NCBI GenBank assembly: GCA_000092065.1
Contig: CP000594.1
DNA length: 64,000 nucleotides
Direction: 5' to 3' (one strand)
DNA from: Ostreococcus lucimarinus
Lineage: Eukaryota
A program made the translations under genes and the position numbers. The notes below the pieces were generated by a model. That model was not told where the DNA came from, searched no databases, and saw nothing but the letters and a program-made list of their open reading frames with translations. Of the stretch, positions 1 through 18,968 are shown piece after piece (positions within the stretch are counted from its first letter, which is position 1; each line of letters begins with the position of its first letter).

Positions 1-3000
1 GCGCAGAATTCCTTGAAGACCCCATGTTGACGCGAAACACTCGTCTTCGAGAGCGCAAAAGCCGGGTAGTGCGGAAGAACATCCGACATTGTGTATCGTT
101 CCAACAAGTCTCCGCCAAAACCAATCACCCCGCTGGTGATTCGTCTATCCTTGATCACACCAGTCGCGTCCGGGCGCGTGACGCTCGTCTTGTAGATTTG
201 AGTTTTCTCCGGAATCGACCCTGTCGTATAGCCCTGAAACCACGTCATGTCGCGAAGATCGATTTCGAAGATACCGAGATCGTGCCAGTTCGCAGCCTTC
301 GAACACCGACTTGAGTCAGAGGCGTCGCATAAGCAAACGTGACCCCGGCGATCAACAAACGAGTCGCTCTTTTGGGCGCTCATATCCAACTCGAGATCGC
401 GCCATTCCAAAAACGGGCGCATGGACGTCTCAATCTTTTGGTCGCGGGAATACAACTCTCCCGACAACAAGCCCGCACAAGTGGATTGGTTTACAGACTG
501 GACTGAATCGACAGCACCGGGAAAGCACTGGCTCAAGGGATATCGACGTCGTTCAAATGTATCCGGCAAACCTTTGTCTCGTAGTCTTTGGAGAGCCTTT
601 TTGTCGTACCTGTATGGTGCACGCATGCTGTACGACAAGTCCTCTTCGACGGGTCGGCCGACCGGCCGGACAATGTGATCACTTTGCCGAGCGAGCGTAG
701 TCTCGGCCCAAATGGTGGTAGTATCGTCCCACGCGCCCATACATCCGACGTTGTCGCCCGCAAGCAGTCGTATCCATGCCTTGCGAGGTATTATGGACGT
801 CCCACCTTCAACAAAGATCATATTCGTACGCTGACCAGAGAGCAGCCGCTTCGGCCCAAATCGTATCTGCTGCTCATCATATTTGGGAATACAAACGCTA
901 GCCTTGTCGTCAAAACCATACTTGGCGCCGATCCGACGCGCGCATTGCAATCCGTAAGCGCACTGGTCGTCGCTCATGCAATGTCCTTCGTACGCCTGGC
1001 ATACCTCTCCACCTCCGAGACCTCCACAGTAGTCGTAGTCACCATTCGTGAGATTGAATCGAGCGTTGTAAGCTTCCTTGTTTTCAAAGTAGCCATCAGA
1101 GCCCGAAAAATCGGCGCAACACGCGTACGGGTGAATTTCACTCTCCAGCGCGCACTGCTTTCCAGGAAGTCCCCCTCGAGAAGCGACGAAATATCCTCTG
1201 TCTGTAGCGTTTCCACACGTTTCGTTTGTCCAATAATACTTGCCGACGATATTTGGATCTCCATAACGTCTGGGGTTGCCTCCCCATTGCGTTCGTACGT
1301 AGCTGAGATCACATGTGTCACCGAATGCAAACCCACCGACGACGCCGCTAAGAAGTTCGTTCGCTGAACACAGACGCGTGCCAGCCTGCGCACACTGTCG
1401 CATGGCAAAATGACGCGAGCCAATGCTCTTGCCGCTCACGCCAGGCAAATTTCCTCTCGCGACGTGTTCCATATCACTCAATGCCTTTTTACACTGCTCC
1501 GATTTCTTTGCGCTCGCATCTCGATCAAAGCATGCGGAAGTGTCCGGAGCCACGGCTCTGAAGCCAGGCGCGCCGCACGTGTCAGAGCCTTGCCTCAGCG
1601 CAAAATAGTTTTTGAAAGTGAATCCGTCGGGCTGCATTCCGCCTTCAAGCTTTTCACAGTTCCGTGTCACGTTACACTCATTGTAGCATATTTGCTCAAT
1701 CTCGGGTGGCCCATGACCAACCAATAAACCAATCCAACCGCTGGTATAGCGGCTAGAGTTTTTCGTCAAACTTGCCTTATCGTACGCAATAAGCCCTTGA
1801 GGATCATATGAATGCCAGTCCAAGTCGTATCGCTTCTCGCAGTAGTGAAGTGGCACCTCGCGCACGCAAGGATTTATCATATCACCAGCCGCAAAACACT
1901 TTACCTCCCGACGACGCGACACTGAGCATGTTTCAAAATCGGACGTCCAGTTCCGTGCGAGGCATGGCGACCATTCACCGATAGAGTAAAAATGATTATG
2001 TTGAAACACAATTCTGACAGTGTCATCGTCACCCGTTTTCAGCCTCAGGCCGTAATGCCATCCTTTCATTTGTGCATCCGCAGCGCCATTCACCATCACA
2101 GAAAGATCGCCCTCCAAATCACCAACGCCGTACTTTTTCTGAGTTTTAAAGTCGGTGAAACTCGCCACACAAATGGACTCTCGCCTATTGAAGTTAAACG
2201 AGTTGCAAGCCATGTTGCGAGTTGGACCTTTTTTTAGCGAATCACAGAGCGCAATACACTCTGCCATAGTGAAGGCGGCGCTGCTCTCGATCGCAATGGC
2301 TGGTACGTACTTTTCCGGGTACAAGCGATAATTGTCCTTCATTTTGTTGTCAAATCGACTGCACGCTCCTCGATTACTTCCGAGCATCGCGGATCCAACA
2401 GTATGCGTACAGGGTCCAAGTTTCGTGTCACCTCTGCAGCATGAGCGACCACACTGTGTGACTACGTTGGTCTTCGTGCGAGGCGCCATAGTCCCAGTGA
2501 TTGTATTTCTTCTCTCAGGGCACTGTAAACGGTTCCATTCCAAGTGTATCGAAAGTCTTCCGCCGACGATGGGGTCAATACATCCAGTGTCATCAATCTC
2601 GTTGCCATGATAACACTCGTGACCGGTCAGATTCTTGGCGAAATCAAAGCAGCACCCGTAATCATGGCACGCGCGCGCGCGAGAATCAATGGACATGAAC
2701 TCACTTCGAACGTCGCCGTAGTACGCCGTACACTTGAAACGATCTTCCATTTTAAGCGCACAATCAGCTTTACAAGAGTGGGTGTTACACTCTCGAGAAG
2801 TCTGTGGTAAAACACCACAGATGTGATCTTGGAGCTGCTCGCCGGATGTGGTGTTGACGCAAATCGCGCTCCGCGTTTGTCCACCTCGCTCGCACTTTCG
2901 CGAACAGTTACTCCATTCGCTAATTTCCCATCGGAATCCAAGTGGGTCTTCACCGTAACAATCAGCGTAGCCCCACAAGCCAGGCTTGGAGGTGTAGCAC

Positions 3001-3887
3001 CAAGGTCTCGTGGAAGGCTCGGCCGGCGCACGACCCACAAGGGTTGGTTCAAAGAATTCAACGACTGTCTGCCTTTGACGCGCGTTATAGTCGGTGGTAA
3101 AGGGAAAGACGCACGGCGCGCCACCAGCTGTACCTTCACACGTCGGTATCGCTCTTGAATGCACGACAAAATCTGCATCATTGAGCATCGAAGAGCCATC
3201 GGTGACGCTCTTGAGCAACATCGCGCTCGTCGTCGACACATCAAACGGACGCGTTGTCGAAAGTCCAAGCGTGTCGTGCTTTTTGTACATCCGCGCGGCA
3301 CAGTCCGTCGTGTTTATGCACGTATAATACCCTTGGCATTGGGAATCGCTTGCACAAAGCGTTCGTAGCCCAGTCTCTGATTTCCCGTTCACCGCGCGCC
3401 AAGCGAGAAGATCTGGAAACGCAACCATTTTCCCCTTGTGCGCCTTCCACTTGGCCTTGGAGTGCACACTCTTCTTGCGATAAAAATCACTCTCCGCCGC
3501 TCGTTGTAACCCGAATCCGCGACCGACCAAAGTACAGAAGTCCGTGGTCAGATCCTTCTTGAAACCCGCGCAGGCGAACCCTTTCGCGTCGCACTCGCGT
3601 TCACACGCGTCGAAAGACTCATAAGTCTCCATCAGGTTACTCCCGACTGGAATGCGGCTTCCGTGCCACCAATAATTTGTTAAATCATCCTCCAACGACC
3701 CAAGAGCGGCTTCGGGAACGTTCACGCCCGCTTTTTTCATGGCGCGCCCCAAGCGTCCTTCGGGAACGCACCAAGCATATGCCGTTCGACCGTGAATTCC
3801 GATTAACACGAACGTAGCGACGAGGATGAACGCGGCCGAGTTCCACCCAATCCATCTATCGCGCGTTCTTGTTCTTCTCGTCGTCAT
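1..3887 (-). CDS. Secreted multidomain protein, 3' end beyond window (>1,290 aa). Domains read from a manual reverse-complement translation: signal peptide, PAN/apple-like, FN2/kringle-like (CVFPF...PWCYT...WGYADC), thrombospondin type-1 repeat (WSNCSRKCERGGQTRSAIC), further Cys-rich PAN-like and possible lectin-like modules
   Basis: Manual reverse-complement translation from ATG at 3887-3885 gives an uninterrupted protein-like frame (carefully verified 3887->3000, less carefully to position 1). The N-terminus MTTRRTRTRDRWIGWNSAAFILVATFVLIGIHGRTAYA has signal-peptide character. The ORF is missing from the supplied track, consistent with the track listing only complete ORFs. Plus-strand ORFs 24..1367 are antisense artefacts. 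Confidence 0.6.
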   Translation of the reverse strand, partial: MTTRRTRTRDRWIGWNSAAFILVATFVLIGIHGRTAYAWCVPEGRLGRAMKKAGVNVPEAALGSLEDDLTNYWWHGSRIPVGSNLMETYESFDACERECDAKGFACAGFKKDLTTDFCTLVGRGFGLQRAAESDFYRKKSVHSKAKWKAHKGKMVAFPDLLAWRAVNGKSETGLRTLCASDSQCQGYYTCINTTDCAARMYKKHDTLGLSTTRPFDVSTTSAMLLKSVTDGSSMLNDADFVVHSRAIPTCEGTAGGAPCVFPFTTDYNARQRQTVVEFFEPTLVGRAPAEPSTRPWCYTSKPGLWGYADCYGEDPLGFRWEISEWSNCSRKCERGGQTRSAICVNTTSGEQLQDHICGVLPQTSRECNTHSCKADCALKMEDRFKCTAYYGDVRSEFMSIDSRARACHDYGCCFDFAKNLTGHECYHGNEIDDTGCIDPIVGGRLSIHLEWNRLQCPERRNTITGTMAPRTKTNVVTQCGRSCCRGDTKLGPCTHTVGSAMLGSNRGACSRFDNKMKDNYRLYPEKYVPAIAIESSAAFTMAECIALCDSLKKGPTRNMACNSFNFNRRESICVASFTDFKTQKKYGVGDLEGDLSVMVNGAADAQMKGWHYGLRLKTGDDDTVRIVFQHNHFYSIGEWSPCLARNWTSDFETCSVSRRREVKCFAAGDMINPCVREVPLHYCEKRYDLDWHSYDPQGLIAYDKASLTKNSSRYTSGWIGLLVGHGPPEIEQICYNECNVTRNCEKLEGGMQPDGFTFKNYFALRQGSDTCGAPGFRAVAPDTSACFDRDASAKKSEQCKKALSDMEHVARGNLPGVSGKSIGSRHFAMRQCAQAGTRLCSANELLSGVVGGFAFGDTCDLSYVRTQWGGNPRRYGDPNIVGKYYWTNETCGNATDRGYFVASRGGLPGKQCALESEIHPYACCADFSGSDGYFENKEAYNARFNLTNGDYDYCGGLGGGEVCQAYEGHCMSDDQCAYGLQCARRIGAKYGFDDKASVCIPKYDEQQIRFGPKRLLSGQRTNMIFVEGGTSIIPRKAWIRLLAGDNVGCMGAWDDTTTIWAETTLARQSDHIVRPVGRPVEEDLSYSMRAPYRYDKKALQRLRDKGLPDTFERRRYPLSQCFPGAVDSVQSVNQSTCAGLLSGELYSRDQKIETSMRPFLEWRDLELDMSAQKSDSFVDRRGHVCLCDASDSSRCSKAANWHDLGIFEIDLRDMTWFQGYTTGSIPEKTQIYKTSVTRPDATGVIKDRRITSGVIGFGGDLLERYTMSDVLPHYPAFALSKTSVSRQHGVFKEFC

Positions 3888-4150
3888 CGGTGCGTCAACG
3901 CCCGTCATGGGCGTTCGATTCTCGACCTCGTTGCCACGGATGGTGTTGGCGGAAACCTCGAGTGATAGCGCGGGTGAGTCTCGAACGAACGGGTGAGTTA
4001 CGGGTGAGTCTCGAACGACTGTTTCTTTTCTCGGCCACGCGCGCGTTTTCTTTTGTCCGCCTCTCTCTCTCGCGCGCGTCGTCGAGTGATGCTGGTGCCG
4101 CTCGTGACGGATTTAAGGGCTTGAACACCCGCGTGTAAAGGCAGACACTT

Positions 4151-4230
4151 TATATAGCACTTTGGGAGGTTAAAAGGTGTCCCAAAGTCTCATACATTGG
4201 CCTATACTTTGGCAACATCCCGCGCTTTGA
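4151..4230. repeat. Intergenic repeat module R1 copy A: TATATA-box-like + hairpin CTTTGGGAGG-ttaaaa-...-TCCCAAAG + ATCCCGCGCTTTGA
   Basis: ~80% identical to 16791..16870. The stem shows a compensatory change between copies (GGGAGG/TCCC vs GGGCGG/CGCCC). Confidence 0.6.
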
Positions 4231-4585: not shown

Positions 4586-7500
4586 ATGTCGAAGAAATCT
4601 GATCCACTGTATGTACCAGTCAACACGTGTGAAGACGACACAGTCGGTCTTCTTCGGACGATCGATGAAGTTCAAGTAGACGAGGGTGAAACCAACGTTA
4701 CTTCGCCCGAAGATAATAATTGTGACGGCGGCGTTCGAGTAGTAGACATGGTTGGGTTGATACGGAACGGGCTGCATGCGCGGAGGTGCGCGAGCAGACG
4801 ACGGTCCACCGCGATCATCCACGTTTTGTTAACTGTCGTTCTGGCAAGTTTTTTGCGTTCGACCTTGGCGTTTGAAAGGACAGATGGGTTTCAAGGCGAG
4901 CTTGAAGATACCGCACACGAAGGACCGGGAGCATCAAGGAGTTCGGTGGCGAACGAAACCGCGGCGCTGGGGTGTGCATGGGGGATACCTTGTCCGCCAG
5001 TGGCTCAGGCGGTGGTGGATGTCGTGTCAGATCCACATGGTGCTGCCGAAGATGCTGCGAACCTGGCTGGAGATGGACTCAATAGTGCTGTAGATGCAGC
5101 AGCGGCTGGGGCAACATTTTTGTACGATCAAGGGACGGCAGCCGCGAGCGCAGCAGCGGCAGCGGCGACAGAGTTGGCGTCGGCTGGATTTGAATTCGCC
5201 AAGGGTGCGGCCACAAGCGCATACGCGATGGGTTGCTCCGCGGCGGCGATGGCTTGGAACACGGCGACGGCGGTCTATGACCGTATGAGCGACCCAGAAA
5301 AATTTTTGTCAGACATGATTGACAGCTTTCCCACATCTTTGGGGGATTTGAAGTCGCTTTCGGGCAAGGCACTCGCAGTCGGTGGAGAAGCCTTCGTGGA
5401 GATGAATGCGAATAATCCCGTTGGACGCCAAGCGCTCGCTGCTGTCAAAAAGGCAAACGAAATCGGCGGCAAGTACGGTTTCGAGAACCTTCAGAAATTC
5501 ACCGCTGTGGGCGCGTCGTTGACGAATCGCGTTATCCCCGGCGGTGGCATAATTTTTGAAGCCGTGGACGTCGTCGGTGAAACGGCGCAAGATGCTGTGG
5601 ATACTGCGATTCTCATCGTGGAGTCTATGCTCAACGCTCTTGAGTGCAAAGTGTCGCCAGTCGATGTTATGGAGGTGATACAAAAAGTTGTCATCGAACA
5701 AATATCAAGCTGGAATGCGTTTGCGAAAATGTTCGAGGAGAAGAAGGGGACTGACTTCTTCTACAAACTCGATCATGTCATCTGCAATACTCTTTGGACA
5801 GTGGCTATGCCGCATGCGGACTTGATGGTGACGGCGATTGGCGTCCTCCTGGAAAAAGTCCAAGCCACTTGTCCAGGAGTTATCCCAGCGGATTCCAAAC
5901 CAGCAGCTACGCTGGGGTTGATTTTTGACGCGTCTGTAAAAGGGGGCTCAATGAAAGGTGTATCTGCTGAGGTTGGCATCGGTGCTGACATTGATGGGAA
6001 CAAATTTTGCTATTTCGGCTCCTGCGCTTACGCAGGTATATCGTTTGGTGGCTACGGTGCTGATGGGACGATGTTGGCGGGACTCAGTGTTTGGAAGTCT
6101 ATGGATTCAGTTCCGGGCACCTCGAGTACATTTGCGTTCGCGGCCGATATCACCATGCCATTACTCCCCTCGTTTGATCCCGGAGTCACGTTCGTTTCAA
6201 ACGACGCCGGGCTCATCGGCATCAGTGTCTCAAAAGAAATCCCCGGCGGCGACGAACCAAGTGGTGAATTTTCGGTCACGAAAGGGCGATGCGTAACGCC
6301 TGTTTGTGTCAAGACAGATGGTAATCCTTGTGGTGAGGGTCAGGCTGCTTGGTCCGACGTGGGCTCGCATGCGACTGCTGCAGTGGAGGCGATCAAGACG
6401 GATGAGTGCATAGTTGCTGGTGCCGGTGTGATTGAACAAAATGGTGGAATTTCCGTGAGTCGAGAAATCCGGTTACCGGCGTCTGGGGTGAACCTTCTTG
6501 CCGATGCTGAGGCAAACCCGACGGGAATGAAGAATTTTAAGCCCTCAAGCGTGAGGATTCCTGAGGGTAAATTCTTACTTGCGTTTACCGGTGGTGATGA
6601 AGCATTTAAGGGGAGCGAGACAGTGATTCGTAGCTATAAGTCAAAACTCAACAACCGTTTGTATTCAATGACGTCCTTTGTCGTTTCTGACATTGCAGCC
6701 GAGTTTCACGAAGAAGCGCCAAAATCAGTTGGCCCAGAACATGCTGGTTCAATCAGTAAATGTAAAGCGATGTGCGCGGTGAAGAAACACTGCTGCAATA
6801 CGGATGAATCCATCGGAAGTAACCAGTATCTAAGCTGCCTACAGGCATGCGTCGTCCGCGTGCGTGGAACCGACGAGCGGACATGTAACTCTTACTGTGC
6901 ATCTGCAACGACTTCTCGTCACATTAATGGTTACATGTACAACCTCGCAACATCTTGCGCTGATGTCGTTGCATCCGAAGGAAAGTTATGTTCTACTCGG
7001 TACGGTAGCGATCGTTCAACCTGCCTATACGGTTGTTCGATCGGACGCGACCCCGAACAATCGCTCGCAGTCGTCAAATCCACTGGATTCTATATGCAAC
7101 TTCCTGCGGCACATGTTACCCCCAGGTCGACGAATAATTTGCGCGATCGGACGTTGAGTAGTGTGATTGTTCGAGCCGGGTTTGTTGTTAAACTGTACGC
7201 CGGGCGCGACCTGAAAGGTCAATACCTGACGCTCGGGAGTTCGGCGACGCTGTATGGTAACCATGCGAGGTTCTATTCATCCTTACGCGGATCATTCCCG
7301 AACACGAAGTTTGCCTGGGCAAATTTCAATGACAGAACTCGGAGCATCGCCATCTTGGAGGCGCCTGTGACGCTTTATACGCAACCCAATTTCCATGGCG
7401 ATCATGAATCAAAACTTGAGCATGCATTTGACTACACCAGTCTCGGTCCGACAGTCGGGGACAGGCATGTTAATTCCATCTTTCTAAGAGAAGGATCTGT

Positions 7501-10500
7501 GGTTGAAGTATACGAGGGACGCAGTTTCAACGGTCGAGGCATGCAGTTCATATCCAGCGTATCAGATGTCCGCCGCGCAACTGAATCCATCGGTGACCTT
7601 TCTAGACCGACATGGCAAAGAGTTTATGGAACTGCAAGTATGGTTGACGCGGGTCGTGAAGAAGTATATAGTATTCACGCAGATGACGTCGCAAATACAA
7701 AGCCAGTTGATAATTCTGGTGACTGGTCGGACTTTTTGACACTGAAGTGGAGTCATATTTCTGTTGGGCCCACAGGCCATGTATGGGCGATTCGTAAACC
7801 TTACGGCAACGCTTATCACTGCATGCCACATCAAACCTCTTGCAAGACCAAATGGGAGTATACCAGGCTCACCCAGCTGGATGCTGGAAGTTTGTACGTT
7901 TGGGGGGTGACGTACTCGGGATACGTATACAGGCATCTCGTGAACACACACGAGGGTTCATGGACACGTGTAAATGCGCCAGATACGATGAAGCATATCT
8001 CAATAGGCCCAAGTGGCGATGTCTGGGCGGTATCGACGACGAATAAAGTATATTTCTGCGTGCATCCGTGTACTGGATCGTGGCGTGTCATCGGCGCATC
8101 CGCACCCGTAAAACGTCTCATATTTACTGTGAACAATGACAAATATATGGCTCGTGTCGATTTGAAGACTGACGGTAGTATTAATTTCAACGCTGGTCAT
8201 AAAGTAGCTGGCTGGTTGAGTCTAAGCGGAATCACGTACGCCACGAGCGGTCTCAACTATCTTTCCCTAAACTCGCGTTATTGGGAACATTATAGTGGCA
8301 TGAATGGCTACTGGTCGCCAGCCCAATACTCGTGCTCGAACGGCCTCGTTTCTGTGACTGGGCTCGTGAAGACAAAAAATCATGGCTGGGGGCAGGTCAT
8401 CGGTACTCTCCCGTCAGGGTGTCGTCCGACGAAAGCACTCATCTTCACCACGAATAACCACGATGAGCAGGCGCGAGTGAACGTATACGCCGACGGGACG
8501 ATCAAATGGGGTGCCGGCGGCAAGGGTCACGGATGGTTGAGCCTAAGTAACATTGTCTTTTCGACCAGTGGCAACGCGCTTTTACCTCTGAGCAATGGTT
8601 GGGCGCACTACAGTGGCACGAGTGGCTACTGGTCGCCTGCTGAGTACTCGTGCGCCGACGGCCTCGTGGTCTTGAGTGGATTAGTACGCGGTAGTAACTG
8701 GGGTTCTACTATCGGCACTCTTCCTCCGGGTTGTCGTCCGAAACAAGCTCTCATCTTCACCACGAACAACAGCGATAAGCAAGCGCGAGTGAACGTGTCA
8801 CCGGGGGGGGTGATCAAATGGTCACGTGGTGGCAAGGGCCACGGTTGGTTGAGCCTGAGCGGCATCGTATTTGCAATGACTGGGCTGCAGTTGATGCCTC
8901 TGAGCAACGGTTGGAAGTACTATAACGGCGCGAGAACGAGCGGGTATTGGGCACCCGCACAGGTCGCGTCTGTGCGCGGCCTCACCGTTGCTCAAGGCCT
9001 TATCAAAGGCGGTGGATGGGGTGGAACAATGGCAAAAATTACCGGTGGATGCGGATATATGAGTGATTTAATGTCCCTGACTAAGAAGAACGCGGGTCAA
9101 CATAGCACAGCACATAATGGCGTTGCAAGCCGCCCGTTGACGTCGACTCCAAATGGGCGCTGGGGGGGTGGCACGTGCACGCACACGAATCATGCGTCCG
9201 ACCCATGGTGGCGACTTGATATGGGGACGACGAGGACCTTGAGTTCGGTGGAGTTGTTGAATCGCAACGACTGCTGCAGTGACCGCTTTATCGGCCTCCG
9301 CGTCTACATCAGCAATCATAACTCCTACGTAAAGGATCATCCGAGTAACAAACAGTGCGGGCAGACGTTGGGATCGCCGAATACTGCCTGGAATATATTC
9401 GACTGCGGCGATGCCATCTCTGGGCGCTACGTATACGCCACCCTATATGGTAAAGCAGCACCGTTAACTATCTGCGGTGTCAGGATGTTCGAATCAAATA
9501 CGATGATAAAGCAGCTGGACGTTGGAAAGCGCTATGTTTACGGAACCAGTACGAATGGTCATCTTTTTAAAATCCGTGCCGATGGGGGCGAGGATAACTG
9601 GTCCCTCGTACATCGTTATAGCGAATTCGGCGGTATTGATGCCAATTATGTTTCAGTCTCACCGCATTCCGAACAATCGTCGTTCCTGTGGGTTACAAAC
9701 CAAGCGAACGAAATTTATCGCCAATCCATCGGAATACAAATCTCTTCCATGAGAGTCGCCTCGGCAATCGTAACTGCTTACAAAGGTGTGGGATTTACCG
9801 GTGATAGTCTGCCCCTGACTTCCGGTTTTTATAACTTTAAGACGCTCGAGGCAGACTCAGACGCCGGATTTAAGCTCACGAACCTCAGAGCGTTTGTGCG
9901 AAGCATCAAGTCTATAAGGATCCATCCAGACTACGAGGTTGAGCTGCGCGGTTATAATCAAGCACGAGCAGTCGTCACCTCTAGTACAATGGGAGTACAC
10001 GATTTTCATAAACTGGACACAGAGGGCAAGGAACACGAAGAGAATATAGTTGGAGCTACAAGATTTCCGCGACCGAGCGGTGTCTCACGCAAATCGACGT
10101 TTATGCCAATCGAAGCAACTACGCTAGGAACATGGATCCAAACACGAACTGCCAACGTTTACGTGATGTCAGATCTATCAGCCACCCCAAGTGCTCTCAT
10201 TAGGTACATTGCTGCGTACGGCGATGCAGAATATTGCAAAATGATCATGTTTCACGTGCGTCACGGCGATGAAGTCTCTGTTGTGCCTGAGGAGGCTGGA
10301 TATGCGACTTTTGGCATCAGAGATGCGTCTTCCGACAAGTGTCAGAATCGCGACGGTGTACTATCGCTCTGGCGTATAAAGCAAACTCCGAGATTGGCGC
10401 GCCGCGCGACAGATGCAGGCTACGGCATCGGAAAGTTGAAATTCTCGATTTTGGGAGGCTGGACGGGAGAAATAGCCTCAATGAAAGTGATGAGAAAACT

Positions 10501-10996
10501 CACTTATGTCCAAGGGTACTCCGGTGGCCGTCATCGTAATGAGGGAGGAAATCCAAAACGGACTCCACGAGAATGTCGGGACATCGCTAAAAGCAAGGGT
10601 TTACCTGCCTGGGGATTTCGAACCGGCCGTCATAATGATCCTAACTGGCGGTTTACGTGCTTCTTTTATGAGCACGGATTTGGGAGATTTGCGGGTAATG
10701 ATGACACAATGCATATGACAGGATGCGTCGATATATCCCGAAAGACCGCAAATGGCTGCGCACTGAGCGCATCAGCCAGCGCGCGGTTGGGTTCTGAAGA
10801 CTTAGAGACTTACCCTCGCGCGATGGCGAGACCAAAGGCGAGACTGCTAGAATCAGACTGGTACTATATCTCTGTCTGCTGTGTTCTCGTCAGCCTAGCG
10901 TCTGTGGTAGCGTTCGTCGCATTTCGACGCTCGCGAACGTCGGGCAAACGCATTCTACTTGAACGAGTCTCAACGAACTACGGTGCCACAATTTAA
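4586..10996 (+). CDS. Giant (~2,100 aa) membrane-anchored multi-lectin protein: N-terminal Ala/Gly-rich region, beta/gamma-crystallin-like segment, tectonin-type beta-propeller repeats, three ~105-aa tandem repeats, F5/8-type-C/fucolectin-like domain, C-terminal TM helix + short tail
   Basis: Single ORF listed 4505..10996 with a TTG start; the first ATG is at 4586 (MSKKSDP) and an alternative at 4748 (MVGLIR) is followed by a hydrophobic signal/anchor. Three tandem repeats (IFTxNNxDxxARVxxxxDGxIxxxxGxKxxGWLSLS...GYWSPAxYSCxxGLV). A CCSDRFIGLRVYI fucolectin-like motif. C-terminal WYYISVCCVLVSLASVVAFVAF TM helix. Confidence 0.7.
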   Translation: MSKKSDPLYVPVNTCEDDTVGLLRTIDEVQVDEGETNVTSPEDNNCDGGVRVVDMVGLIRNGLHARRCASRRRSTAIIHVLLTVVLASFLRSTLAFERTDGFQGELEDTAHEGPGASRSSVANETAALGCAWGIPCPPVAQAVVDVVSDPHGAAEDAANLAGDGLNSAVDAAAAGATFLYDQGTAAASAAAAAATELASAGFEFAKGAATSAYAMGCSAAAMAWNTATAVYDRMSDPEKFLSDMIDSFPTSLGDLKSLSGKALAVGGEAFVEMNANNPVGRQALAAVKKANEIGGKYGFENLQKFTAVGASLTNRVIPGGGIIFEAVDVVGETAQDAVDTAILIVESMLNALECKVSPVDVMEVIQKVVIEQISSWNAFAKMFEEKKGTDFFYKLDHVICNTLWTVAMPHADLMVTAIGVLLEKVQATCPGVIPADSKPAATLGLIFDASVKGGSMKGVSAEVGIGADIDGNKFCYFGSCAYAGISFGGYGADGTMLAGLSVWKSMDSVPGTSSTFAFAADITMPLLPSFDPGVTFVSNDAGLIGISVSKEIPGGDEPSGEFSVTKGRCVTPVCVKTDGNPCGEGQAAWSDVGSHATAAVEAIKTDECIVAGAGVIEQNGGISVSREIRLPASGVNLLADAEANPTGMKNFKPSSVRIPEGKFLLAFTGGDEAFKGSETVIRSYKSKLNNRLYSMTSFVVSDIAAEFHEEAPKSVGPEHAGSISKCKAMCAVKKHCCNTDESIGSNQYLSCLQACVVRVRGTDERTCNSYCASATTSRHINGYMYNLATSCADVVASEGKLCSTRYGSDRSTCLYGCSIGRDPEQSLAVVKSTGFYMQLPAAHVTPRSTNNLRDRTLSSVIVRAGFVVKLYAGRDLKGQYLTLGSSATLYGNHARFYSSLRGSFPNTKFAWANFNDRTRSIAILEAPVTLYTQPNFHGDHESKLEHAFDYTSLGPTVGDRHVNSIFLREGSVVEVYEGRSFNGRGMQFISSVSDVRRATESIGDLSRPTWQRVYGTASMVDAGREEVYSIHADDVANTKPVDNSGDWSDFLTLKWSHISVGPTGHVWAIRKPYGNAYHCMPHQTSCKTKWEYTRLTQLDAGSLYVWGVTYSGYVYRHLVNTHEGSWTRVNAPDTMKHISIGPSGDVWAVSTTNKVYFCVHPCTGSWRVIGASAPVKRLIFTVNNDKYMARVDLKTDGSINFNAGHKVAGWLSLSGITYATSGLNYLSLNSRYWEHYSGMNGYWSPAQYSCSNGLVSVTGLVKTKNHGWGQVIGTLPSGCRPTKALIFTTNNHDEQARVNVYADGTIKWGAGGKGHGWLSLSNIVFSTSGNALLPLSNGWAHYSGTSGYWSPAEYSCADGLVVLSGLVRGSNWGSTIGTLPPGCRPKQALIFTTNNSDKQARVNVSPGGVIKWSRGGKGHGWLSLSGIVFAMTGLQLMPLSNGWKYYNGARTSGYWAPAQVASVRGLTVAQGLIKGGGWGGTMAKITGGCGYMSDLMSLTKKNAGQHSTAHNGVASRPLTSTPNGRWGGGTCTHTNHASDPWWRLDMGTTRTLSSVELLNRNDCCSDRFIGLRVYISNHNSYVKDHPSNKQCGQTLGSPNTAWNIFDCGDAISGRYVYATLYGKAAPLTICGVRMFESNTMIKQLDVGKRYVYGTSTNGHLFKIRADGGEDNWSLVHRYSEFGGIDANYVSVSPHSEQSSFLWVTNQANEIYRQSIGIQISSMRVASAIVTAYKGVGFTGDSLPLTSGFYNFKTLEADSDAGFKLTNLRAFVRSIKSIRIHPDYEVELRGYNQARAVVTSSTMGVHDFHKLDTEGKEHEENIVGATRFPRPSGVSRKSTFMPIEATTLGTWIQTRTANVYVMSDLSATPSALIRYIAAYGDAEYCKMIMFHVRHGDEVSVVPEEAGYATFGIRDASSDKCQNRDGVLSLWRIKQTPRLARRATDAGYGIGKLKFSILGGWTGEIASMKVMRKLTYVQGYSGGRHRNEGGNPKRTPRECRDIAKSKGLPAWGFRTGRHNDPNWRFTCFFYEHGFGRFAGNDDTMHMTGCVDISRKTANGCALSASASARLGSEDLETYPRAMARPKARLLESDWYYISVCCVLVSLASVVAFVAFRRSRTSGKRILLERVSTNYGATI

Positions 10997-12500: not shown

Positions 12501-14711
12501 TTAGTATGAGCACCAGACGACCGCCGGCGCGAGCTCCGTCTCCCCCGTGTACCCATTGTTCTTCAGCCACTCGAAGCACCCGTCGCGGTCAATTTCCCAA
12601 TAAACGCCCTTCTCGTCCCTACCTTGCCTCAGGTGGTCCTCTTGCATTGGGACCCTGTGGCCCTTTTCCTTCTTGAAGAAGTCCTTGAGCTTATTACCGA
12701 CCTTCGTCGCGCTATCTTGACCGCGCGCAGCCGCTGGCAACCACGTCTGGTATTCGATGAAGATGTCACTGTTGCGGATTTTATTTCCAACCCACTTCTC
12801 AGGGAATTCAACAGTGACGCAATGCTCAAACCATCGAGTGAACTTGGGCATGCATCCACGCTTCATTTCCGAATACGCATCGGTCGTAGGTCTGTCTTTG
12901 ACGTAGTCAAAGGTCGATAGGTCGAGCCCCATGAGATGGTCGTAGATTGCCCTCAAGTTCCTCGGATCCCTGATGTAAACCTCGCGGAATTCCTTCAAGA
13001 ATCCAGTCTGGTCGTTCAAGTGCGTGAGCAGTGGCTCCATGACGACGAACCGACGATCACTCATTTCCAGAAAGACCGGGTAGTCGTCGTTCGAGAAAAA
13101 TAGGAACCCAACCAGATTCATGATGACGTACAGCTGCACGTGCTTCGGGTTGATTGTGAAACTCGTGTCCGTGAGCATCGACTTCAGCAACTTTCTATAC
13201 ATTTTCATGATGCACTCATCTGCTTCGTTCAACGCGAGGCACTTTTTGCCTTCAATCATGTTCGCATGCGTCCCAAATATGTCCTTTTTCGGATCAGCCG
13301 TCTCGTGAAACGTCTTGCCCATGAGCGCGTGAAGCAGGTGCAGGAAAGTGCCCTTGCCGGTACCTTGGACTCCTCGAAACACGAGCGACGTGATCGGCTT
13401 CTCTTCGGGTCTCTGGAAGAGACACGCGAACCAATTCGAAGCGTACTCGAGCGCATTTTCTGAACCGCCACATAGCACCAGGAGGAGCTCGAGGAAAGGC
13501 TTCACGTCGCCCTCTTTGCCCAGTTCACTGGGGATGCCTTCGACCGGGTAGCCTCGCCACAGATTGTACGTCTTGTTGCTGCAGTTTTTCGGGACGACGT
13601 CGAGGTTATCGTACACCCGTTTATTGTCGTCGTCGAGCCACTTTTCGATGAACCCGTTTTTCTTGCCTTTCCTCAAGACACCGTTCTCATCGACAAAGGA
13701 GAGCTCTCGATAGCGCCTCACCAAAGCGGCCTCGCTGTACTTGGTAATGTCCCCGGTGGTTCCATAACAGCTATCGTCGCAGAAGAGGTCCTTGGTTAAG
13801 ATCTTTGCGACGTGCTTCTCGAACTCACGGCGGACCTCGATGTAGCCCGCAGACGTGCCCTCTTTGATTTCGTTCTGCTCCTTTTCGGTGATACCGGTCA
13901 CCAAACACCCAACCTCAAAGCGAAACTGTCTGGGCTTGCAGTTGCCATGGTTTTTCACGGTGAGCACGCCGAGACCGACCTCGGCGACGTAAAAGTGATT
14001 CCCACCGCCCCTTCCATTGCCTTCGTGGAAGCCCCCACAGCAAGGACATTGGCCCACAGTGGTGCCTCGCTGTGGGCGACATTGGTCGCATTCAAAATCA
14101 TACGATGTCGCTCCACTGAGCCAATGTATGCCCGTGAACCCCATTTCCTCGAGCAAAGGTGTCACAGATGCTTGCGTAAAGCTGCACTCCGTGTCCGCGC
14201 GTTCGACCTTGTGACCGACTTTGCCATCAAGGAAACTGTACAAATCGTTGGGCATCGGTGGTAAATTGTTGATGTCGCCTCGGAGTAGCTCGTAGCCCGG
14301 GGCATCGGCACCGACCACGTAGTTACCCGTCGTACGGATATCGACGAACCCTTCGATGCCCACCGTGCCTTTCCAATCGCCGAATCGTTCTTCGTCCCAT
14401 GCGAAGTACGTGTGGTACCCGCCTGATCGCGTTTTGACGATATACGCGCCTTCCCCGCCGACCTTGCGCGTCAACATTTCTTCCGTGAGTTCAAACTCGC
14501 ACTTGCCACCGTAACAATCCCAGTCGATGACGAGGACACGGTTCGGTCGCCCTGTCAGCACGCCGTACATTTCTCCTGGGATGACTTTCTGCGTATTCCG
14601 TTCATAGTTTGCTTCATCGAGGAACCCCCTGCCGCATGTTGGCTCCTTGTCCTGGTCGAGTGGGATCAGATGCATGCCGTTCGTAAATTCTCTGGCGTCC
14701 ATATATATCAC
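12501..14711 (-). CDS. D5-like primase-helicase: N-terminal PrimPol (archaeo-eukaryotic primase) domain, D5_N, SF3 helicase (NCLDV/PLV/virophage/phage-P4 type)
   Basis: 736-aa ORF. PrimPol motifs (VLVIDWDCYGG...GGYHTYF...FVDIRTTGNYVVGA). Walker A VFRGVQGTGKGT and Walker B CLALNEADE of an SF3 helicase. Low-GC codon usage. Confidence 0.85.
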   Translation of the reverse strand: MIYMDAREFTNGMHLIPLDQDKEPTCGRGFLDEANYERNTQKVIPGEMYGVLTGRPNRVLVIDWDCYGGKCEFELTEEMLTRKVGGEGAYIVKTRSGGYHTYFAWDEERFGDWKGTVGIEGFVDIRTTGNYVVGADAPGYELLRGDINNLPPMPNDLYSFLDGKVGHKVERADTECSFTQASVTPLLEEMGFTGIHWLSGATSYDFECDQCRPQRGTTVGQCPCCGGFHEGNGRGGGNHFYVAEVGLGVLTVKNHGNCKPRQFRFEVGCLVTGITEKEQNEIKEGTSAGYIEVRREFEKHVAKILTKDLFCDDSCYGTTGDITKYSEAALVRRYRELSFVDENGVLRKGKKNGFIEKWLDDDNKRVYDNLDVVPKNCSNKTYNLWRGYPVEGIPSELGKEGDVKPFLELLLVLCGGSENALEYASNWFACLFQRPEEKPITSLVFRGVQGTGKGTFLHLLHALMGKTFHETADPKKDIFGTHANMIEGKKCLALNEADECIMKMYRKLLKSMLTDTSFTINPKHVQLYVIMNLVGFLFFSNDDYPVFLEMSDRRFVVMEPLLTHLNDQTGFLKEFREVYIRDPRNLRAIYDHLMGLDLSTFDYVKDRPTTDAYSEMKRGCMPKFTRWFEHCVTVEFPEKWVGNKIRNSDIFIEYQTWLPAAARGQDSATKVGNKLKDFFKKEKGHRVPMQEDHLRQGRDEKGVYWEIDRDGCFEWLKNNGYTGETELAPAVVWCSY

Positions 14712-15181
14712 ATAAGAAAAGAATTCTTTAAGCCGTGTTTTTCCTGGTCACATCGGCGCGATGACTGATTTTCAAGTTTTTCAACAGCCTGGAAAAGCAC
14801 GCCAGCACGCCCCACTGGTCAACATTTTGCCACTTTTTCGACGAGATCGGGGTACTGCAAAGCACACGGCGAAGACGGGTGGCCGATGATCCATGTGTCC
14901 GTGTCTTCTCTGATGATTCGCTCCCGTTCATGGCTCAAGTGGTCGCGCGACCTCGCGCGTGAACGAAGGTGCCAAATTTTAGGTACCAGAGGTGCCCATT
15001 TCTTCGTGGTGAGATGGTCCCTCGTGTACCACGCCGCTCCCCTTTAAGTATGAAAAGTTATGTCCAATATATTGCGCGCGATGTCCGATGGTACACCATA
15101 CAATTTCATAGTTAAGCCACACTTATTATATGACGACAGTGCCTACCTGTCGGTGGTCACGGAAAAGTTGCGTCTCAGACT

Positions 15182-15320
15182 GAGGATGGCGTGGCTCATG
15201 CGAGCTATATATACCTCATATATACATATATTAACACTTATAACACTATTAATGTACAATTGATTGGATGAGGTGCTCAGTCCACCCGCGCGAGGTCAAC
15301 AGCAGCAATTGTCTATGCAC
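15182..15320. repeat. Direct repeat R2 copy A (~140 bp), includes the last ~20 nt and 3' flank of the metallothionein-like CDS
   Basis: ~90% identical to 16869..17008. Confidence 0.6.
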
Positions 15321-15643
15321 TTGGAGCATGAGTTTTTGCACTCGCACGACGGACACGCGCAGGAGGTGCATCCGCACGACTTACACGTGGTCGCATCGGG
15401 ACACGCGCATTTGTCGGGGCCACAAGCATCACAGTCTTTCGGGCAGCACGCCTTGTCCGTGGACTCAGATTGTACCGTCCGTGCTGCAACCCGCGTCGGG
15501 CGCGAGACGACGCGCACGGCGCGTGGCGCGGTTCTTGACAATACGAAATCTGGTATCTGCGTACTCTTTACCTTAACGGCGGAGACTTTGAGCATTGTTG
15601 CGTCGAGGAATGGGCCAAGGGTAAGTAACCTCGTGGTCGGCAC
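15296..15643 (-). CDS. Metallothionein-like cysteine-rich protein (19 Cys in the C-terminal 50 aa) with a Cys-free, transit-peptide-like 65-aa N-terminal extension
   Basis: C-terminus CCPKDCDACGPDKCACPDATTCKSCGCTSCACPSCECKNSCSKCIDNCCC. The N-terminus is S/T/R/V/A-rich with few acidic residues. Head-to-head with ferritin. Confidence 0.5.
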   Translation of the reverse strand: MPTTRLLTLGPFLDATMLKVSAVKVKSTQIPDFVLSRTAPRAVRVVSRPTRVAARTVQSESTDKACCPKDCDACGPDKCACPDATTCKSCGCTSCACPSCECKNSCSKCIDNCCC

Positions 15644-15684
15644 GTGCCCGCCTTATACAATCGACGCCTGAAAAGGGAGACTGG

Positions 15685-16542
15685 ATGAGATCGAGGGCAC
15701 CCCGTGAGCGATCACTCTTCGACGCGGAACTCGTTCCTGTAGACGGCCAGCCACCACTCGAACGACCATACGGCAGCACAAAAGTACATCCACAACGTGT
15801 ACGTATCGAAATGGCTGCCTATACTCAAGCGACGTTAACAGCACCTTCGTCGTCGACAGCCGTAAGCAATTCGAAGATAAGACTACGCCGTTCACGAACA
15901 ACTACGCGCACACATTCTGATCCGTCCGAAAGTACGCCGTTGAGTGAAGAGGCGCAAATCATAGTTGATGCATCGGAGGCGTACCCAGCGCAGACAAGCG
16001 TGGATTATTCGTTCGCAAGGAGTGGGTTCAGTAACCAGTGTGAACGAGCACTCAACGAGCAAATCAATGTCGAGTACAATATTTCGTACGTCTATCACGC
16101 CATGTGGGCGTACTTCAATCGTGACAATATCGCATTGGCTGGCTTTGCTGAACACTTTCGAAAAGAGTCACTGGAGGAGCGTGCGCATGCGGAACAACTC
16201 ATGGAGTACATGAACTTACGAGGCGGCAAAGTTGAGCTCCAACAATTGTTACCACCACAGAGTGAATACGATCGCCCGGAGAAAGGATGCGCACTATTAG
16301 CCCTGGAGCTGAGTTTGAGTCTCGAAAAGTTGAATAAAGAGAAACTGTGTGAACTGCATCGCGTCGCTGAGGATGCAGGAGACGCACATATGTGCGATTT
16401 TATTGAAGGCGAGTTATTAGACTCGCAGGTTCAAAGTGTGCGACAGGTTAGCGAGATGGTCGCCACGCTATTACGCATGGGACCGCCAGCAGATGGTATG
16501 GCAACTTGGCACTTCGATCAAACCTTACTTGAGGTGGCATAG
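15685..16542 (+). CDS. Ferritin (plant/algal type, with N-terminal targeting/extension peptide; alternative start ATG at 15811)
   Basis: QCERALNEQINVEYNISYVYHAMWAYFNRDNIALAGFAEHFRKESLEERAHAEQLMEYMNLRGGKV...SLEKLNKEKL...WHFDQTLLE matches the plant ferritin consensus (ferroxidase-centre residues E, Y, E..H present). Confidence 0.9.
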   Translation: MRSRAPRERSLFDAELVPVDGQPPLERPYGSTKVHPQRVRIEMAAYTQATLTAPSSSTAVSNSKIRLRRSRTTTRTHSDPSESTPLSEEAQIIVDASEAYPAQTSVDYSFARSGFSNQCERALNEQINVEYNISYVYHAMWAYFNRDNIALAGFAEHFRKESLEERAHAEQLMEYMNLRGGKVELQQLLPPQSEYDRPEKGCALLALELSLSLEKLNKEKLCELHRVAEDAGDAHMCDFIEGELLDSQVQSVRQVSEMVATLLRMGPPADGMATWHFDQTLLEVA

Positions 16543-16652
16543 AAGCGGATTGTATCTCGTTGAGTCTAGTCACTTTCGTGTGCTCGTTTCGTTGGTTTCT
16601 GGTTACGAGTTCTTCCGTTGTTCTAAATATAACATATATTTAGACATATCCA

Positions 16653-16779
16653 AACCCTAGTACAATCACCCTAGGGTTTAGTCAAACTTTAATCAGTTTT
16701 ATCTAAATTAATTTTCATCTGTCGTCGCGAAAGATGAATCCTCGCGACAGAAAAACAGGTCTAAACCTTAAACCCTAAC
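16653..16779. repeat. Cluster of telomere-like / telo-box motifs (AAACCCTAG, CCCTAGGGTTTAG, TAAACCTTAAACCCTAAC)
   Basis: TAGGGTTTAG equals 1.5 units of the plant-type TTTAGGG telomeric repeat. Similar motifs occur at 4509..4518 and 19091..19106. Confidence 0.5.
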
Positions 16780-16790
16780 TTCGGTTGGGC

Positions 16791-16870
16791 TATATAGCAC
16801 TTTGGGCGGTTAAAACCGCGCCCAAAGCCCCATATATTGTCCCATGTTTCGGCCAAATCCCGCGCTTTGA
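16791..16870. repeat. Repeat module R1 copy B (hairpin CTTTGGGCGG-ttaaaa-CCGCGCCCAAAG)
   Basis: Homologous to 4151..4230; abuts R2 copy B. Confidence 0.6.
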
Positions 16871-17008
16871 GGATGGCGTGGCTCATGCGACCTATATATG
16901 CCTCATGCGTACATATATTAACATTTATAAGGGTATTAATACATAATTGATTGGATGGGGTGCTCAGTCCACCCGCGCGAGGTCAACAGCAGCAATTGTC
17001 TTTGCACT
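16869..17008. repeat. Direct repeat R2 copy B
   Basis: ~90% identical to 15182..15320. Confidence 0.6.
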
Positions 17009-17177: not shown

Positions 17178-18968
17178 CTAGTCCGCTTTGTTGTGGATCT
17201 TGTCGCACTTGTCGAAAGCGTATGCGGCGACGGTACTGCTGACCCCGGACGGATCAAAGACTGATGCGAGCTCAGCTGCCGCGCGGACCGCATCCGTCTC
17301 TGATTCCGCGCTGTTTACGTTTTTCATCGCAGAAAAATAGCCGGTAGTCTTACCAACCGCCTCCATACCTTGGTCGAGACTATTTGCCGCCTTTTTCAAA
17401 GCAGCAAGCTTACTCCCAGCTTCGGCAACGTTAGCACCGGCACGGGCTGCAGCCTTGGCCCCAGTTGTCGCAGCTCCACTACTCCCAGCGGTCGCTACAA
17501 ATGCAATAATTTCCAACGGCCCGAGAATCATATTAGTTACCGCGGAGCCACAAGCGGCGTCATCTTTTGCGGCACCCATACCGCAGTTCACCCACTTCTC
17601 ACCGCTCACTGTTGGAGGTTGGCCCCAGCAAACTGGACCGACGCCATTGTAACCACTGCGACATTTCTTGTAACACAAACCAGCGTCGTACTCCAAACCA
17701 GGAGGACACGTGGCTGCTTCAAAGCCGTGTGAGCAGTATATCTTTTTCGGGCAACTCGGCGCAATTCCATGTGCGTACCCATTGCCGGTGCAAGAAACGC
17801 CGCACAAGTTGCAGCCAATCCGGTTCGGATGACTGCTAGGGCAAGGAGGATAACAAAGTCCAAGACAGTCTTGTCTTCCTTTTCTGCTACAGTGCCTTCC
17901 GCCGCATACGAGTCTTGTCCTCGCGTTCCCCAAAAGGCGTCGACCGTTGGCCGCATGTTCGCCAAGGGTGGATGATGATGATGACCAGTACTCCCAGCCA
18001 CACTGGACGGTACCAACACCACGACCGCGGTTACCTCTGTTACAAAAAAGACCATGATCATTCCAGCCCGAGCCGCAGCGTTGATGGCAGTCGTAGCCAA
18101 ATCTGGCATAATTACCGAGGTGGTGGCATTTGGTATAGCACAAGACGCCCCCTGCAATTGTTTCTTTATTGGAAGGGCAATGAGACGGGACTTTGCCCAC
18201 ATCGCGGCCGTATGAGTTTTTCCAACAGAACTCGACGGTGATGGCGTTCGCAACGACAGCACCCTTCGCATTCGACGCAGCACTTACACCATCACTAAAG
18301 CTGTCCCATTTTCCGCCCAACCGAGCAGATAGCATCGCTTCGTGTACCTCCAATAATGCCTTGTCTTGCTCAATCTCTTCGTGCAGTTTTTGCATATATG
18401 CTGAGACGTTCACTGGCGCCGGTTGCGTCGCACCCTCATCCACCGTGGCCTGCCAAACGAAGTTCGAATGCTCATCATTAGCAAGATTTTCATCGTCACG
18501 CCTGCGCAAATGTTGTTTAAGCATCTTAATTCGTAATAGCGTCGCGTTTCTTCCGCCCTTGGTCGATATGAACATGCCATCCTCGGCTCCTGCCGCATTC
18601 AACCTGGGTTCGGCACCTGGGATCACCTCCCCAGGACCCGCACTCCCGAGCAACGCGTGGACTTCTGGACCGAATTCCATCTCGTCAACGAATTCGTCCA
18701 AGTGATCAGGGAGATCAAATTCACCCTGGATCGAGTGCGCGGACAATCCCAGCAACGCAGACGGCCCTTTCGGTGCACTTTCACGGTACGAGAACGAAAT
18801 CACACCCACAGCAAACAGCACAGCGGCCTGCTTCACGGTACACCAGCCGCATGCCGCCGCTTTTCGCCCTTCACGTTCCTCCGTTTGTTGCCAACTGCGA
18901 GCGCCGTCGTTCGACGAGCCGGGCGCGCCGTATGTCTCACTAATCGCCGCCGCTTCGTACGTCGGCAT
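17178..18968 (-). CDS. Cysteine-rich type-II membrane protein (N-terminal signal anchor, coiled region, GCC2/GCC3- or EGF-like Cys repeats, C-terminal Ala-rich module)
   Basis: 596-aa ORF. TM helix AAVLFAVGVISFSY. Repeated CxxC...GY...G..C spacing (CYPPCPSSHPNRIGCNLCGVSC, CYKKCRSGYNGVGPVCWG). C-terminal AAARAGANVAEAGSKLAALKKAANSLDQG resembles the Ala-rich N-terminal part of the 4586..10996 protein (QALAAVKKANEIGGKYG). Confidence 0.6.
   Translation of the reverse strand: MPTYEAAAISETYGAPGSSNDGARSWQQTEEREGRKAAACGWCTVKQAAVLFAVGVISFSYRESAPKGPSALLGLSAHSIQGEFDLPDHLDEFVDEMEFGPEVHALLGSAGPGEVIPGAEPRLNAAGAEDGMFISTKGGRNATLLRIKMLKQHLRRRDDENLANDEHSNFVWQATVDEGATQPAPVNVSAYMQKLHEEIEQDKALLEVHEAMLSARLGGKWDSFSDGVSAASNAKGAVVANAITVEFCWKNSYGRDVGKVPSHCPSNKETIAGGVLCYTKCHHLGNYARFGYDCHQRCGSGWNDHGLFCNRGNRGRGVGTVQCGWEYWSSSSSTLGEHAANGRRLLGNARTRLVCGGRHCSRKGRQDCLGLCYPPCPSSHPNRIGCNLCGVSCTGNGYAHGIAPSCPKKIYCSHGFEAATCPPGLEYDAGLCYKKCRSGYNGVGPVCWGQPPTVSGEKWVNCGMGAAKDDAACGSAVTNMILGPLEIIAFVATAGSSGAATTGAKAAARAGANVAEAGSKLAALKKAANSLDQGMEAVGKTTGYFSAMKNVNSAESETDAVRAAAELASVFDPSGVSSTVAAYAFDKCDKIHNKAD

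Follow-up and report, generated by a model that had tools for sequence, protein, structure and literature searches.

What is a protein built from PAN, FN2/kringle-like, TSP1, trefoil-like and lectin-like modules, a mix usually discussed as an animal or apicomplexan toolkit, doing in a green alga? The question is raised by one end of a 64,000-nucleotide stretch of contig CP000594.1 (GenBank assembly GCA_000092065.1, Ostreococcus lucimarinus), referred to here as the window. Positions 3887 to 1 of its minus strand hold a single open reading frame (ORF) that runs off the window edge and encodes a giant mosaic protein of cysteine-rich modules. The product is probably a secreted or surface-bound, multivalent adhesion or lectin-type recognition protein. 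We favor this reading because all of its identified modules are binding units, because it has one N-terminal hydrophobic segment and because its head is conserved across genera.

Translation from the ATG at 3887 to position 1 yields 1295 codons and no stops. The remaining five frames over the same interval contain 18 to 72 stops, and their longest open runs span 81 to 260 codons. Judged by the frame with the fewest stops (18 per 1295 codons), the probability that 1295 consecutive codons stay open by chance is about e^-18, or roughly 1e-8. Upstream, the frame is bounded by an in-frame TAA at 4115-4113 and is open from there. A second in-frame ATG lies at 3908, seven codons upstream of ATG 3887, and the start codon is one of these two. 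The part of the protein encoded in the window has 67 cysteines (5.2%) and 11 N-x-S/T sequons.

The ORF list for this interval contains just 588-1367 on the plus strand and an out-of-frame ORF at 2627-3301 on the minus strand. The mosaic protein is missing from the list because the program leaves out ORFs that run off an end of its source, and its own description bears out the explanation given in the first-pass annotation, which suggested that only complete ORFs are reported. That annotation also described an unbroken frame from ATG 3887 to the edge and quoted two motifs. The in-frame stop that would contradict it was looked for and is absent, and both motifs are present as written, CVFPF...RPWCYTSKPGLWGYADC at amino acids (aa) 259-310 and WSNCSRKCERGGQTRSAICV at aa 326-344.

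The predicted truncation at the window edge is likewise real. An environmental relative, L007, is 95-98% identical to window positions 1265-1 and runs 1.6 kb beyond the edge. In L007, the same frame goes on for 370 more codons to a stop, after which another gene follows. If the source genome matches L007, the full protein therefore has approximately 1665 aa. On that assumption, the window would hold the 5' 78% of an intron-free gene of approximately 5 kb.

Comparison with environmental alleles indicates how this frame evolves. L008 is 94.9% identical over window positions 3828-1, and L009, which is error-rich, is 88% identical over 3989-1; overall, alleles of the gene differ from the window by 2-12% (88-98% identity). 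The ratio of nonsynonymous to synonymous substitution rates (dN/dS) is 0.33 against L008 (1268 codons) and 0.12 against L007 (395 codons). The lowest values are found in the FN2-like module (0.06), in the TSP1 repeat (0.14) and across aa 880-1090 (0.10-0.11), and the highest (0.65-0.83) across aa 375-880. Four of the five insertions or deletions relative to L008 measure 12, 12, 3 and 3 nucleotides. The gene is real and is under purifying selection.

The protein also belongs to a widespread family. A word-indexed homology search with the whole protein gave no match at E<=1e-3, which reflects a limit of the index and not orphan status. An exhaustive search of 1.84 billion representative proteins gave 277 matches at that threshold, including metagenomic fragments that are 84-97% identical; L007, L008 and L009 are the contigs from which three of these fragments derive. 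Over aa 60-1490, the protein is colinear, at 37% identity and approximately 870 bits, with an uninterrupted ORF of at least 4702 aa in L011 and L012. A frameshifted homologue in L010 is colinear as well (aa 62-1490), and a homologue in L005, which has an apparent intron, is related over aa 68-407 and then 728-1439. The loci in L005, L010 and L011 have GC contents of 0.58-0.65 and cellular neighbors (FBPase, PfkB, an S1-domain gene and OTU). Names attached to the relatives are "hypothetical protein" labels, and one EukProt entry is labelled Prymnesium polylepis.

The unnamed giant marine-algal proteins, represented by an ORF of at least 4702 aa in Ga0181560_10001203 and by P0159 (2699 aa), are true homologues, in which this cassette of PAN, PAN-like, FN2, TSP1 and trefoil-like modules is also present. 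They are two to three times as long as the protein studied here, and introns break up some of them. Extra parts of the longer relatives are DUF285 repeats, further TSP1 or PAN modules, or ShK-like ends, and P0159 terminates in ShK-like motifs. By comparison, the mosaic protein stops approximately 175 aa past the shared part, and this tail is without homologues. A discoidin/F5-8C-like domain was considered for the end of this C-terminal extension and rejected, as the segment has no Pfam match, no similarity to the F5/8C domain of the neighboring gene and no homologues.

One further feature of the family loci concerns an adjacent gene. The FBPase gene upstream of the giant homologue (L011 1-7000, L010 1-9000) is split by several copies of one repeat, whose translation reads ...LVPIRPRSRGERRSLRT...PLAFNPR.... 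This repeat resembles introner elements, which are known from Micromonas.

Which modules make up the protein is only partly visible to profile searches. A Pfam scan of the whole protein found only TSP1_ADAMTS, a search of the PDB by sequence returned nothing meaningful, and profile-profile comparisons among the PAN-like modules of the protein (P 0.003-0.4) are too weak to use. Most module assignments (Table 1) come from cysteine patterns, predicted structures, scans of fragments and matches to the same site in homologues.

The N-terminal module has the PAN fold, with a beta-sheet on a helix and a disulfide core. The N-terminal PAN-type modules have no Pfam match, even when scanned as fragments. 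The alpha/beta module that follows is predicted with a high pLDDT (predicted local distance difference test) score and is conserved in approximately 37 homologues. Its cysteine pattern suggests that it, too, is PAN-like.

The third module appears to be a divergent FN2 domain. In a fragment scan it stays below the threshold of PF00040 (fn2), and only the seven residues CVFPFTT match (E 0.56). The orthologous module in P0008 matches fn2 over its full length at 26.5 bits (cut-off 22.2), and that in P0158 scores 20.0 bits. The classic FN2 domain has four cysteines paired C1-C3 and C2-C4, and the window copy lacks this full set. C2 and C4 are replaced jointly (FEP, WGYAD) in this protein, P0010 and P0022, and both are retained (YEC, WGYCD) in six other homologues. 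Throughout the family alignment, YEC goes with WGYCD, and YEP or FEP goes with WGY[AT]D. Joint retention and joint loss of C2 and C4 are what a C2-C4 disulfide predicts, and the covariation therefore supports assignment to the FN2 fold. Together with flanking cysteines, the module in the homologues may form a six-cysteine pattern like that of a miniature kringle.

The TSP1 repeat is the module that Pfam recognizes without assistance: PF19030 matches at E 1.6e-7 and 31.9 bits (cut-off 23.8). All six conserved cysteines are in place (C328, C332, C343, C357, C367 and C372). The WxxW ladder and the C-x-x-S/T-C-x-x-G motif for O-fucosylation are absent, and the corresponding residues read W-EISE-W (W-x4-W) and CSRKCERG. 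The homologue P0004 keeps CSRTCGTG in its TSP1 repeat. The trefoil-like module that follows has no match to PF00088 in a fragment scan. At the same site, four homologues have full-length Trefoil matches of 20.6, 19.4, 19.3 and 14.4 bits, all below the cut-off of 21.

Farther along the chain, PF00024 (PAN_1) is absent from the whole-protein scan and is detected when its segment is scanned as a fragment (E 6.3e-5, 23.2 bits, cut-off 21.4); homologues P0059 and P0002 score 24.6 and 22.1 bits. The degenerate TSP1-like repeat aligns weakly to the TSP1 block in a local hhalign comparison (P 2.4e-4, probability 44%). Tandem copies of the Dickkopf_N-like knot occur in dozens of library proteins, among which P0030 matches Dickkopf_N at E 7e-13. 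Few parts of the protein are as constrained as the beta-rich region beyond the knot. The PAN-like core at the window edge is assigned by pattern from the continuation in P0162 and L007, and P0162 has no Pfam match.

The domain reading in the first-pass annotation is confirmed overall, with some adjustment of its parts. The TSP1 repeat called canonical there does exceed the Pfam threshold and has its six cysteines, but not the WxxW and CSxTCG motifs. The proposed FN2/kringle-like module gains from the threshold-passing match in P0008, but is itself divergent and sub-threshold. The proposed PAN/apple module has the right fold, but a Pfam match to PAN is reached only by the third such module, at aa 521-582, as a fragment. 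The additional cysteine-rich modules that had been anticipated are found, among them the trefoil-like module, PAN_1, the degenerate TSP1 repeat and the Dickkopf_N-like knot.

The leader consists of an Arg-rich n-region, a hydrophobic stretch at approximately aa 12-33 and then AYA|W. In a Kyte-Doolittle scan of the 1666-aa composite protein, this is the sole hydrophobic segment, as windows above 1.6 start only at aa 12-18, and no C-terminal transmembrane segment was found. The leader may be either a signal peptide, as first annotated, or a type II signal anchor.

These features suggest how the protein could work. Its lone hydrophobic segment, at the N-terminus, would direct it into the secretory pathway. 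Once outside, it would present a series of disulfide-rich binding modules, from the first PAN/apple module to the last PAN-like core, and would either stay attached to the naked plasma membrane in type II orientation or be released. Glycans or glycoproteins carried by other cells, particles or viruses might then be the ligands of these modules. Secretion, topology, ligand binding and any biological role are predicted from sequence and models. Candidate roles include cell-cell contact, binding of particles or bacteria, virus attachment and gamete recognition.

Several observations weigh against this explanation. The FN2, trefoil, second TSP1 and C-type-lectin-like assignments are sub-threshold, or were made through homologues or models of moderate confidence. 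The last approximately 370 aa are seen in a 95-98% identical relative, not in the source genome. Moreover, three environmental alleles are disrupted. L008 carries C372->TGA and a 1-nucleotide frameshift (an insertion after codon 472), and L007 carries R1115->TGA and a 72-nucleotide in-frame deletion. One reading of the disruptions is that some lineages can dispense with the gene or that it is decaying there; errors of assembly or sequencing are another.

The surroundings of the gene bear on its other possible interpretations. GC content is 0.49-0.54 within 1-18 kb and approximately 0.54-0.71 further on. GC at third codon positions (GC3) is 0.56 for the mosaic protein gene, 0.53 for its divergent neighbor and 0.49 for a ferritin gene, versus 0.63-0.74 for housekeeping genes. 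The gene is thus lower in GC than its background, as are genes of Mamiellophyceae outlier chromosomes.

The neighbor, which contains internal tandem duplications of approximately 310 nucleotides at 8281-8883, was considered as a paralogue and rejected, as it is unrelated in sequence and is not beside homologues of the mosaic protein elsewhere. An adhesion or recognition gene cluster had been proposed for the two. Two extracellular-protein genes do lie side by side, but they are unrelated and divergently transcribed, and no counterpart of the neighbor accompanies the homologues; a functional cluster is hypothetical.

Farther in, the primase-helicase gene also has tblastn matches to phage P4-type primases. 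This gene and the adjacent GIY-YIG-like gene look virus- or mobile-element-derived, within an algal chromosome. The 596-aa ORF sits at the transition from low to normal GC. From 19 kb, the window is densely filled with long housekeeping ORFs (ABC-F, HECT, MIF4G/MA3, Vps4-like AAA, M18 aminopeptidase, PUF, a PX/Vps5 protein, OSBP and GT34). Neither an Rfam scan nor a tRNA scan of the window gave a match. The M18 aminopeptidase has a 100% match in a marine metagenome, its other relatives are 75-86% identical, and all its named matches are to Viridiplantae (53-57%, the best of them at 55-57%). Judged from its genes, the host is a green alga, and its genome is compact and poor in introns. The picoalgal host named at the outset is plausible, as GC of approximately 60% and compactness fit a Mamiellophyceae-type picoalga.

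Table 1. Features of the mosaic protein gene and of the adjoining part of the window (positions are those of the window)
Position	Strand	Feature	Remarks
1..3887	-	Coding sequence of giant mosaic protein, aa 1-1295	No stop; cut by window edge; alternative start ATG 3908
3774..3887	-	N-terminal leader, aa 1-38	Kyte-Doolittle scan
3468..3692	-	PAN/apple module 1, aa ~66-140	Core C95-x3-C99...C106-AGF...C118-TL
3147..3449	-	Alpha/beta module 2 (conserved), aa ~147-247	C178-x5-C184-QGYY-x-C190...C196
2958..3140	-	Divergent FN2/mini-kringle module, aa 250-310	C2-C4 disulfide lost; insertion
2772..2930	-	Thrombospondin type-1 repeat (TSP1), aa 320-372	Six Cys; Pfam PF19030
2613..2762	-	Module like trefoil (P-domain), aa 376-425	C-x9-C-x20-C-x4-CC-x11-C, including GCCFD
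2142..2327	-	PAN_1 domain, aa ~521-582	Pfam PF00024 on fragment
1836..1979	-	TSP1-like repeat, degenerate, aa 637-684	EWSPC..., five Cys; by eye and hhalign
1110..1418	-	Putative C-type-lectin-like/Link-like domain, aa ~824-926	
879..1055	-	Dickkopf_N-like cysteine-knot module, aa 945-1003	
240..878	-	Beta-rich region (conserved), aa ~1004-1216	Ig/IPT-TIG-like sandwich
3..80	-	Start of putative further PAN-like core	...KEFC, then AQRCKANALCVGFDY... in relative; cut by window edge
4151..4230	.	80-nucleotide repeat with TATATA and small hairpin	Copy at 16791-16870, 80% identical
4586..10996	+	Neighbor, 2136 aa, divergent from mosaic protein gene	Tectonin, F5/8-type-C (NedA-like), beta/gamma-crystallin; C-terminal transmembrane segment
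11266..12075	-	269-aa ORF, GIY-YIG-like N-terminus	Recognized by eye; without a match in Pfam or PHROG
12501..14711	-	Primase/SF3-helicase, 736 aa	DUF5906 E 2e-14; phage DNA-primase PHROGs E 2e-30
15181..15321		141-nucleotide unit	Copy at 16868-17008, 90% identical
15244..16988		Ferritin gene and flanks	99.9-100% identical in four independent datasets (L001-L004)
17178..18968	-	596-aa ORF	No Pfam or PHROG match; GC3 0.55, intermediate

Short dispersed repeats are confined to the low-GC part of the window. The 80-nucleotide repeat lies in the upstream region common to the mosaic protein gene and its neighbor, and together with the 141-nucleotide unit it brackets the ferritin gene as well as the stretch that extends from the tectonin gene to the primase gene. 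Inverted repeats that might delimit an element were not found in 1-20 kb.

Public metagenome contigs depart from the window in the same region. The neighbor protein is 100% identical on seven of them. The match to the window extends down to 3888 in L016 and to 3780 in L017, and the first 52 nucleotides of L017 and the first 164 of L008 are unrelated to the window (breaks at approximately 3780 and 3828). L014 and L015 carry a copy of the neighbor gene that is 99.8-99.99% identical, and their matches stop at 4220 and 4236, in or beside the 80-nucleotide repeat. Upstream of its break, 4.6 kb of L014 hold other genes, and a homologue of the mosaic protein is missing there; this divergent part includes a 626-aa membrane protein that is 31% identical to part of the neighbor. 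The breaks in L014 and L015 could represent a structural variant, a second copy of the neighbor gene, an assembly chimera or contigs from different species. At the ferritin locus, identity is 99.9-100%, versus 88-98% for alleles of the mosaic protein gene 12 kb away.

This pattern of polymorphism resembles that of the hypervariable low-GC outlier chromosomes of Ostreococcus (PMC5498103, PMC5082852). An ambitious extrapolation, which we consider improbable, is that the gene represents one of several alleles of a surface-protein cassette bounded by repeats, in a hypervariable low-GC region, and that this cassette is swapped, truncated or deleted in natural populations of one picoalgal species between identical flanks. 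Such a cassette would be a candidate cell-surface determinant of virus susceptibility or of mating compatibility, with a PAN-kringle/FN2-TSP1-trefoil head unit that predates or is independent of the animal extracellular-matrix toolkit.

A related proposal is that the protein is a virus-host determinant, either an attachment factor for prasinoviruses or a decoy, encoded in a hypervariable region that resembles an outlier chromosome and in which viral pressure leads to swapping, truncation or loss of alleles. Small, low-GC hypervariable outlier chromosomes tied to virus resistance are documented in Ostreococcus (PMC5498103, PMC5082852), and the low GC and GC3 of the first approximately 17 kb would be in keeping with one. 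So would the divergent alleles with their stops and frameshift beside a nearly invariant ferritin locus and neighbor protein, and the contigs that leave the window at 4220 and 4236 and have no such gene there. However, the compared contigs may not come from one population, and contig ends and repeats are prone to assembly chimeras. Conservation of the 1490-aa head at 37% identity across distant algae suggests a core function, not a fast-turnover receptor. Also, work on Ostreococcus resistance implicates glycosyltransferases and reports no differences in adsorption (PMC5082852). We regard a specific role as a virus-host determinant as unlikely.

It is slightly more doubtful that the protein is a gamete or cell-cell recognition adhesin, functionally analogous to sexual agglutinins, encoded in or beside a low-GC, recombination-suppressed, mating-type-like region. 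The mosaic adhesin architecture, the low GC3 of the region and the conservation of the family across genera agree with this idea, and in Mamiellophyceae the big outlier chromosome, which is low in GC, is a candidate for the mating-type locus (PMC5498103). However, no mating-type marker gene is seen in the window, and alleles of the gene are approximately 5% diverged, compared with approximately 50% amino-acid divergence between mating haplotypes (PMC5498103). Moreover, the homologues in L010 and L011 adjoin ordinary metabolic genes.

The phage-type matches of the primase-helicase gene raise the question of whether the mosaic protein arrived as cargo of an integrated virus or mobile element, along with this gene and the GIY-YIG-like gene. 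The atypical base composition and the segments bounded by short repeats would fit, and giant viruses commonly carry PAN/apple proteins. Against such an origin, no relative of the protein was found in 2.9 million viral contigs, and the viral structure library returned only generic giant-virus PAN/apple proteins, which match in fold only (6-23% identity). Family members in L005, L010 and L011 lie amid cellular genes at normal GC. The gene is located outside the primase-containing segment bounded by the repeats at 4151-4230 and 16791-16870, and the missing inverted repeats also speak against an element. Arrival as cargo is very unlikely. A decaying pseudogene or a fortuitous long ORF without function could explain the stops and frameshift in environmental alleles and the high dN/dS in the middle third of the protein, but is scarcely credible given 1295 open codons in the window copy, dN/dS of 0.12-0.33 overall and 0.06-0.14 in domain cores, frame-preserving larger indels and colinear homologues at 37% identity.

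Mamiellophyte picoalgae such as Ostreococcus have no cell wall, and their plasma-membrane surface mediates contact with viruses, bacteria, grazers and mates. To our knowledge, almost none of their surface proteins has been characterized. Our literature searches turned up no account of TSP1, PAN or FN2 proteins from Mamiellophyceae, nor any statement on the chromosome that carries the ferritin gene. The mosaic protein and its relatives constitute a conserved, unnamed family of very large, predicted secreted proteins. Should the structural polymorphism among metagenome contigs prove genuine, the locus would be a concrete and testable candidate for surface recognition that differs between strains. 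Also, a six-cysteine module between FN2 and kringle is relevant to the evolution of the kringle/FN2 superfamily.

Every module type listed for the protein is an extracellular protein- or carbohydrate-binding module, and several well-studied systems use one or more of them. Thrombospondins, ADAMTS proteins, properdin and spondins are comparable in the one bona fide TSP1 repeat, which matches an ADAMTS-type profile. In contrast to these animal proteins, the algal protein lacks, by Pfam, an oligomerization coil, EGF or type-3 repeats, a metalloprotease and reelin or spondin domains, and its O-fucosylation and WxxW motifs are degenerate. The N-terminal regions of plasminogen and HGF, in which PAN is followed by kringles, offer a second parallel. 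However, Pfam finds no serine-protease domain in the algal protein, and the corresponding module is FN2-sized rather than kringle-sized, has 13-18% identity and has lost one of the two inner disulfides. The protein lies outside the thrombospondin, ADAMTS, plasminogen/HGF and TRAP/MIC2 families because the defining non-repeat parts of those families are absent.

Micronemal and sexual-stage adhesins of apicomplexans form the third comparison, with the apple domains of TgMIC4 and EtMIC5, the thrombospondin repeats (TSR) of TRAP and MIC2, and the CCp/FNPA proteins of Plasmodium. Beyond common module types, no relationship in sequence is detectable. The algal protein has no vWA, LCCL or discoidin domain, C-terminal transmembrane segment or cytoplasmic tail; its modules are ordered differently, and its host is a free-living green alga. 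Nevertheless, by analogy of architecture, it would appear to work most like these apicomplexan mosaic adhesins.

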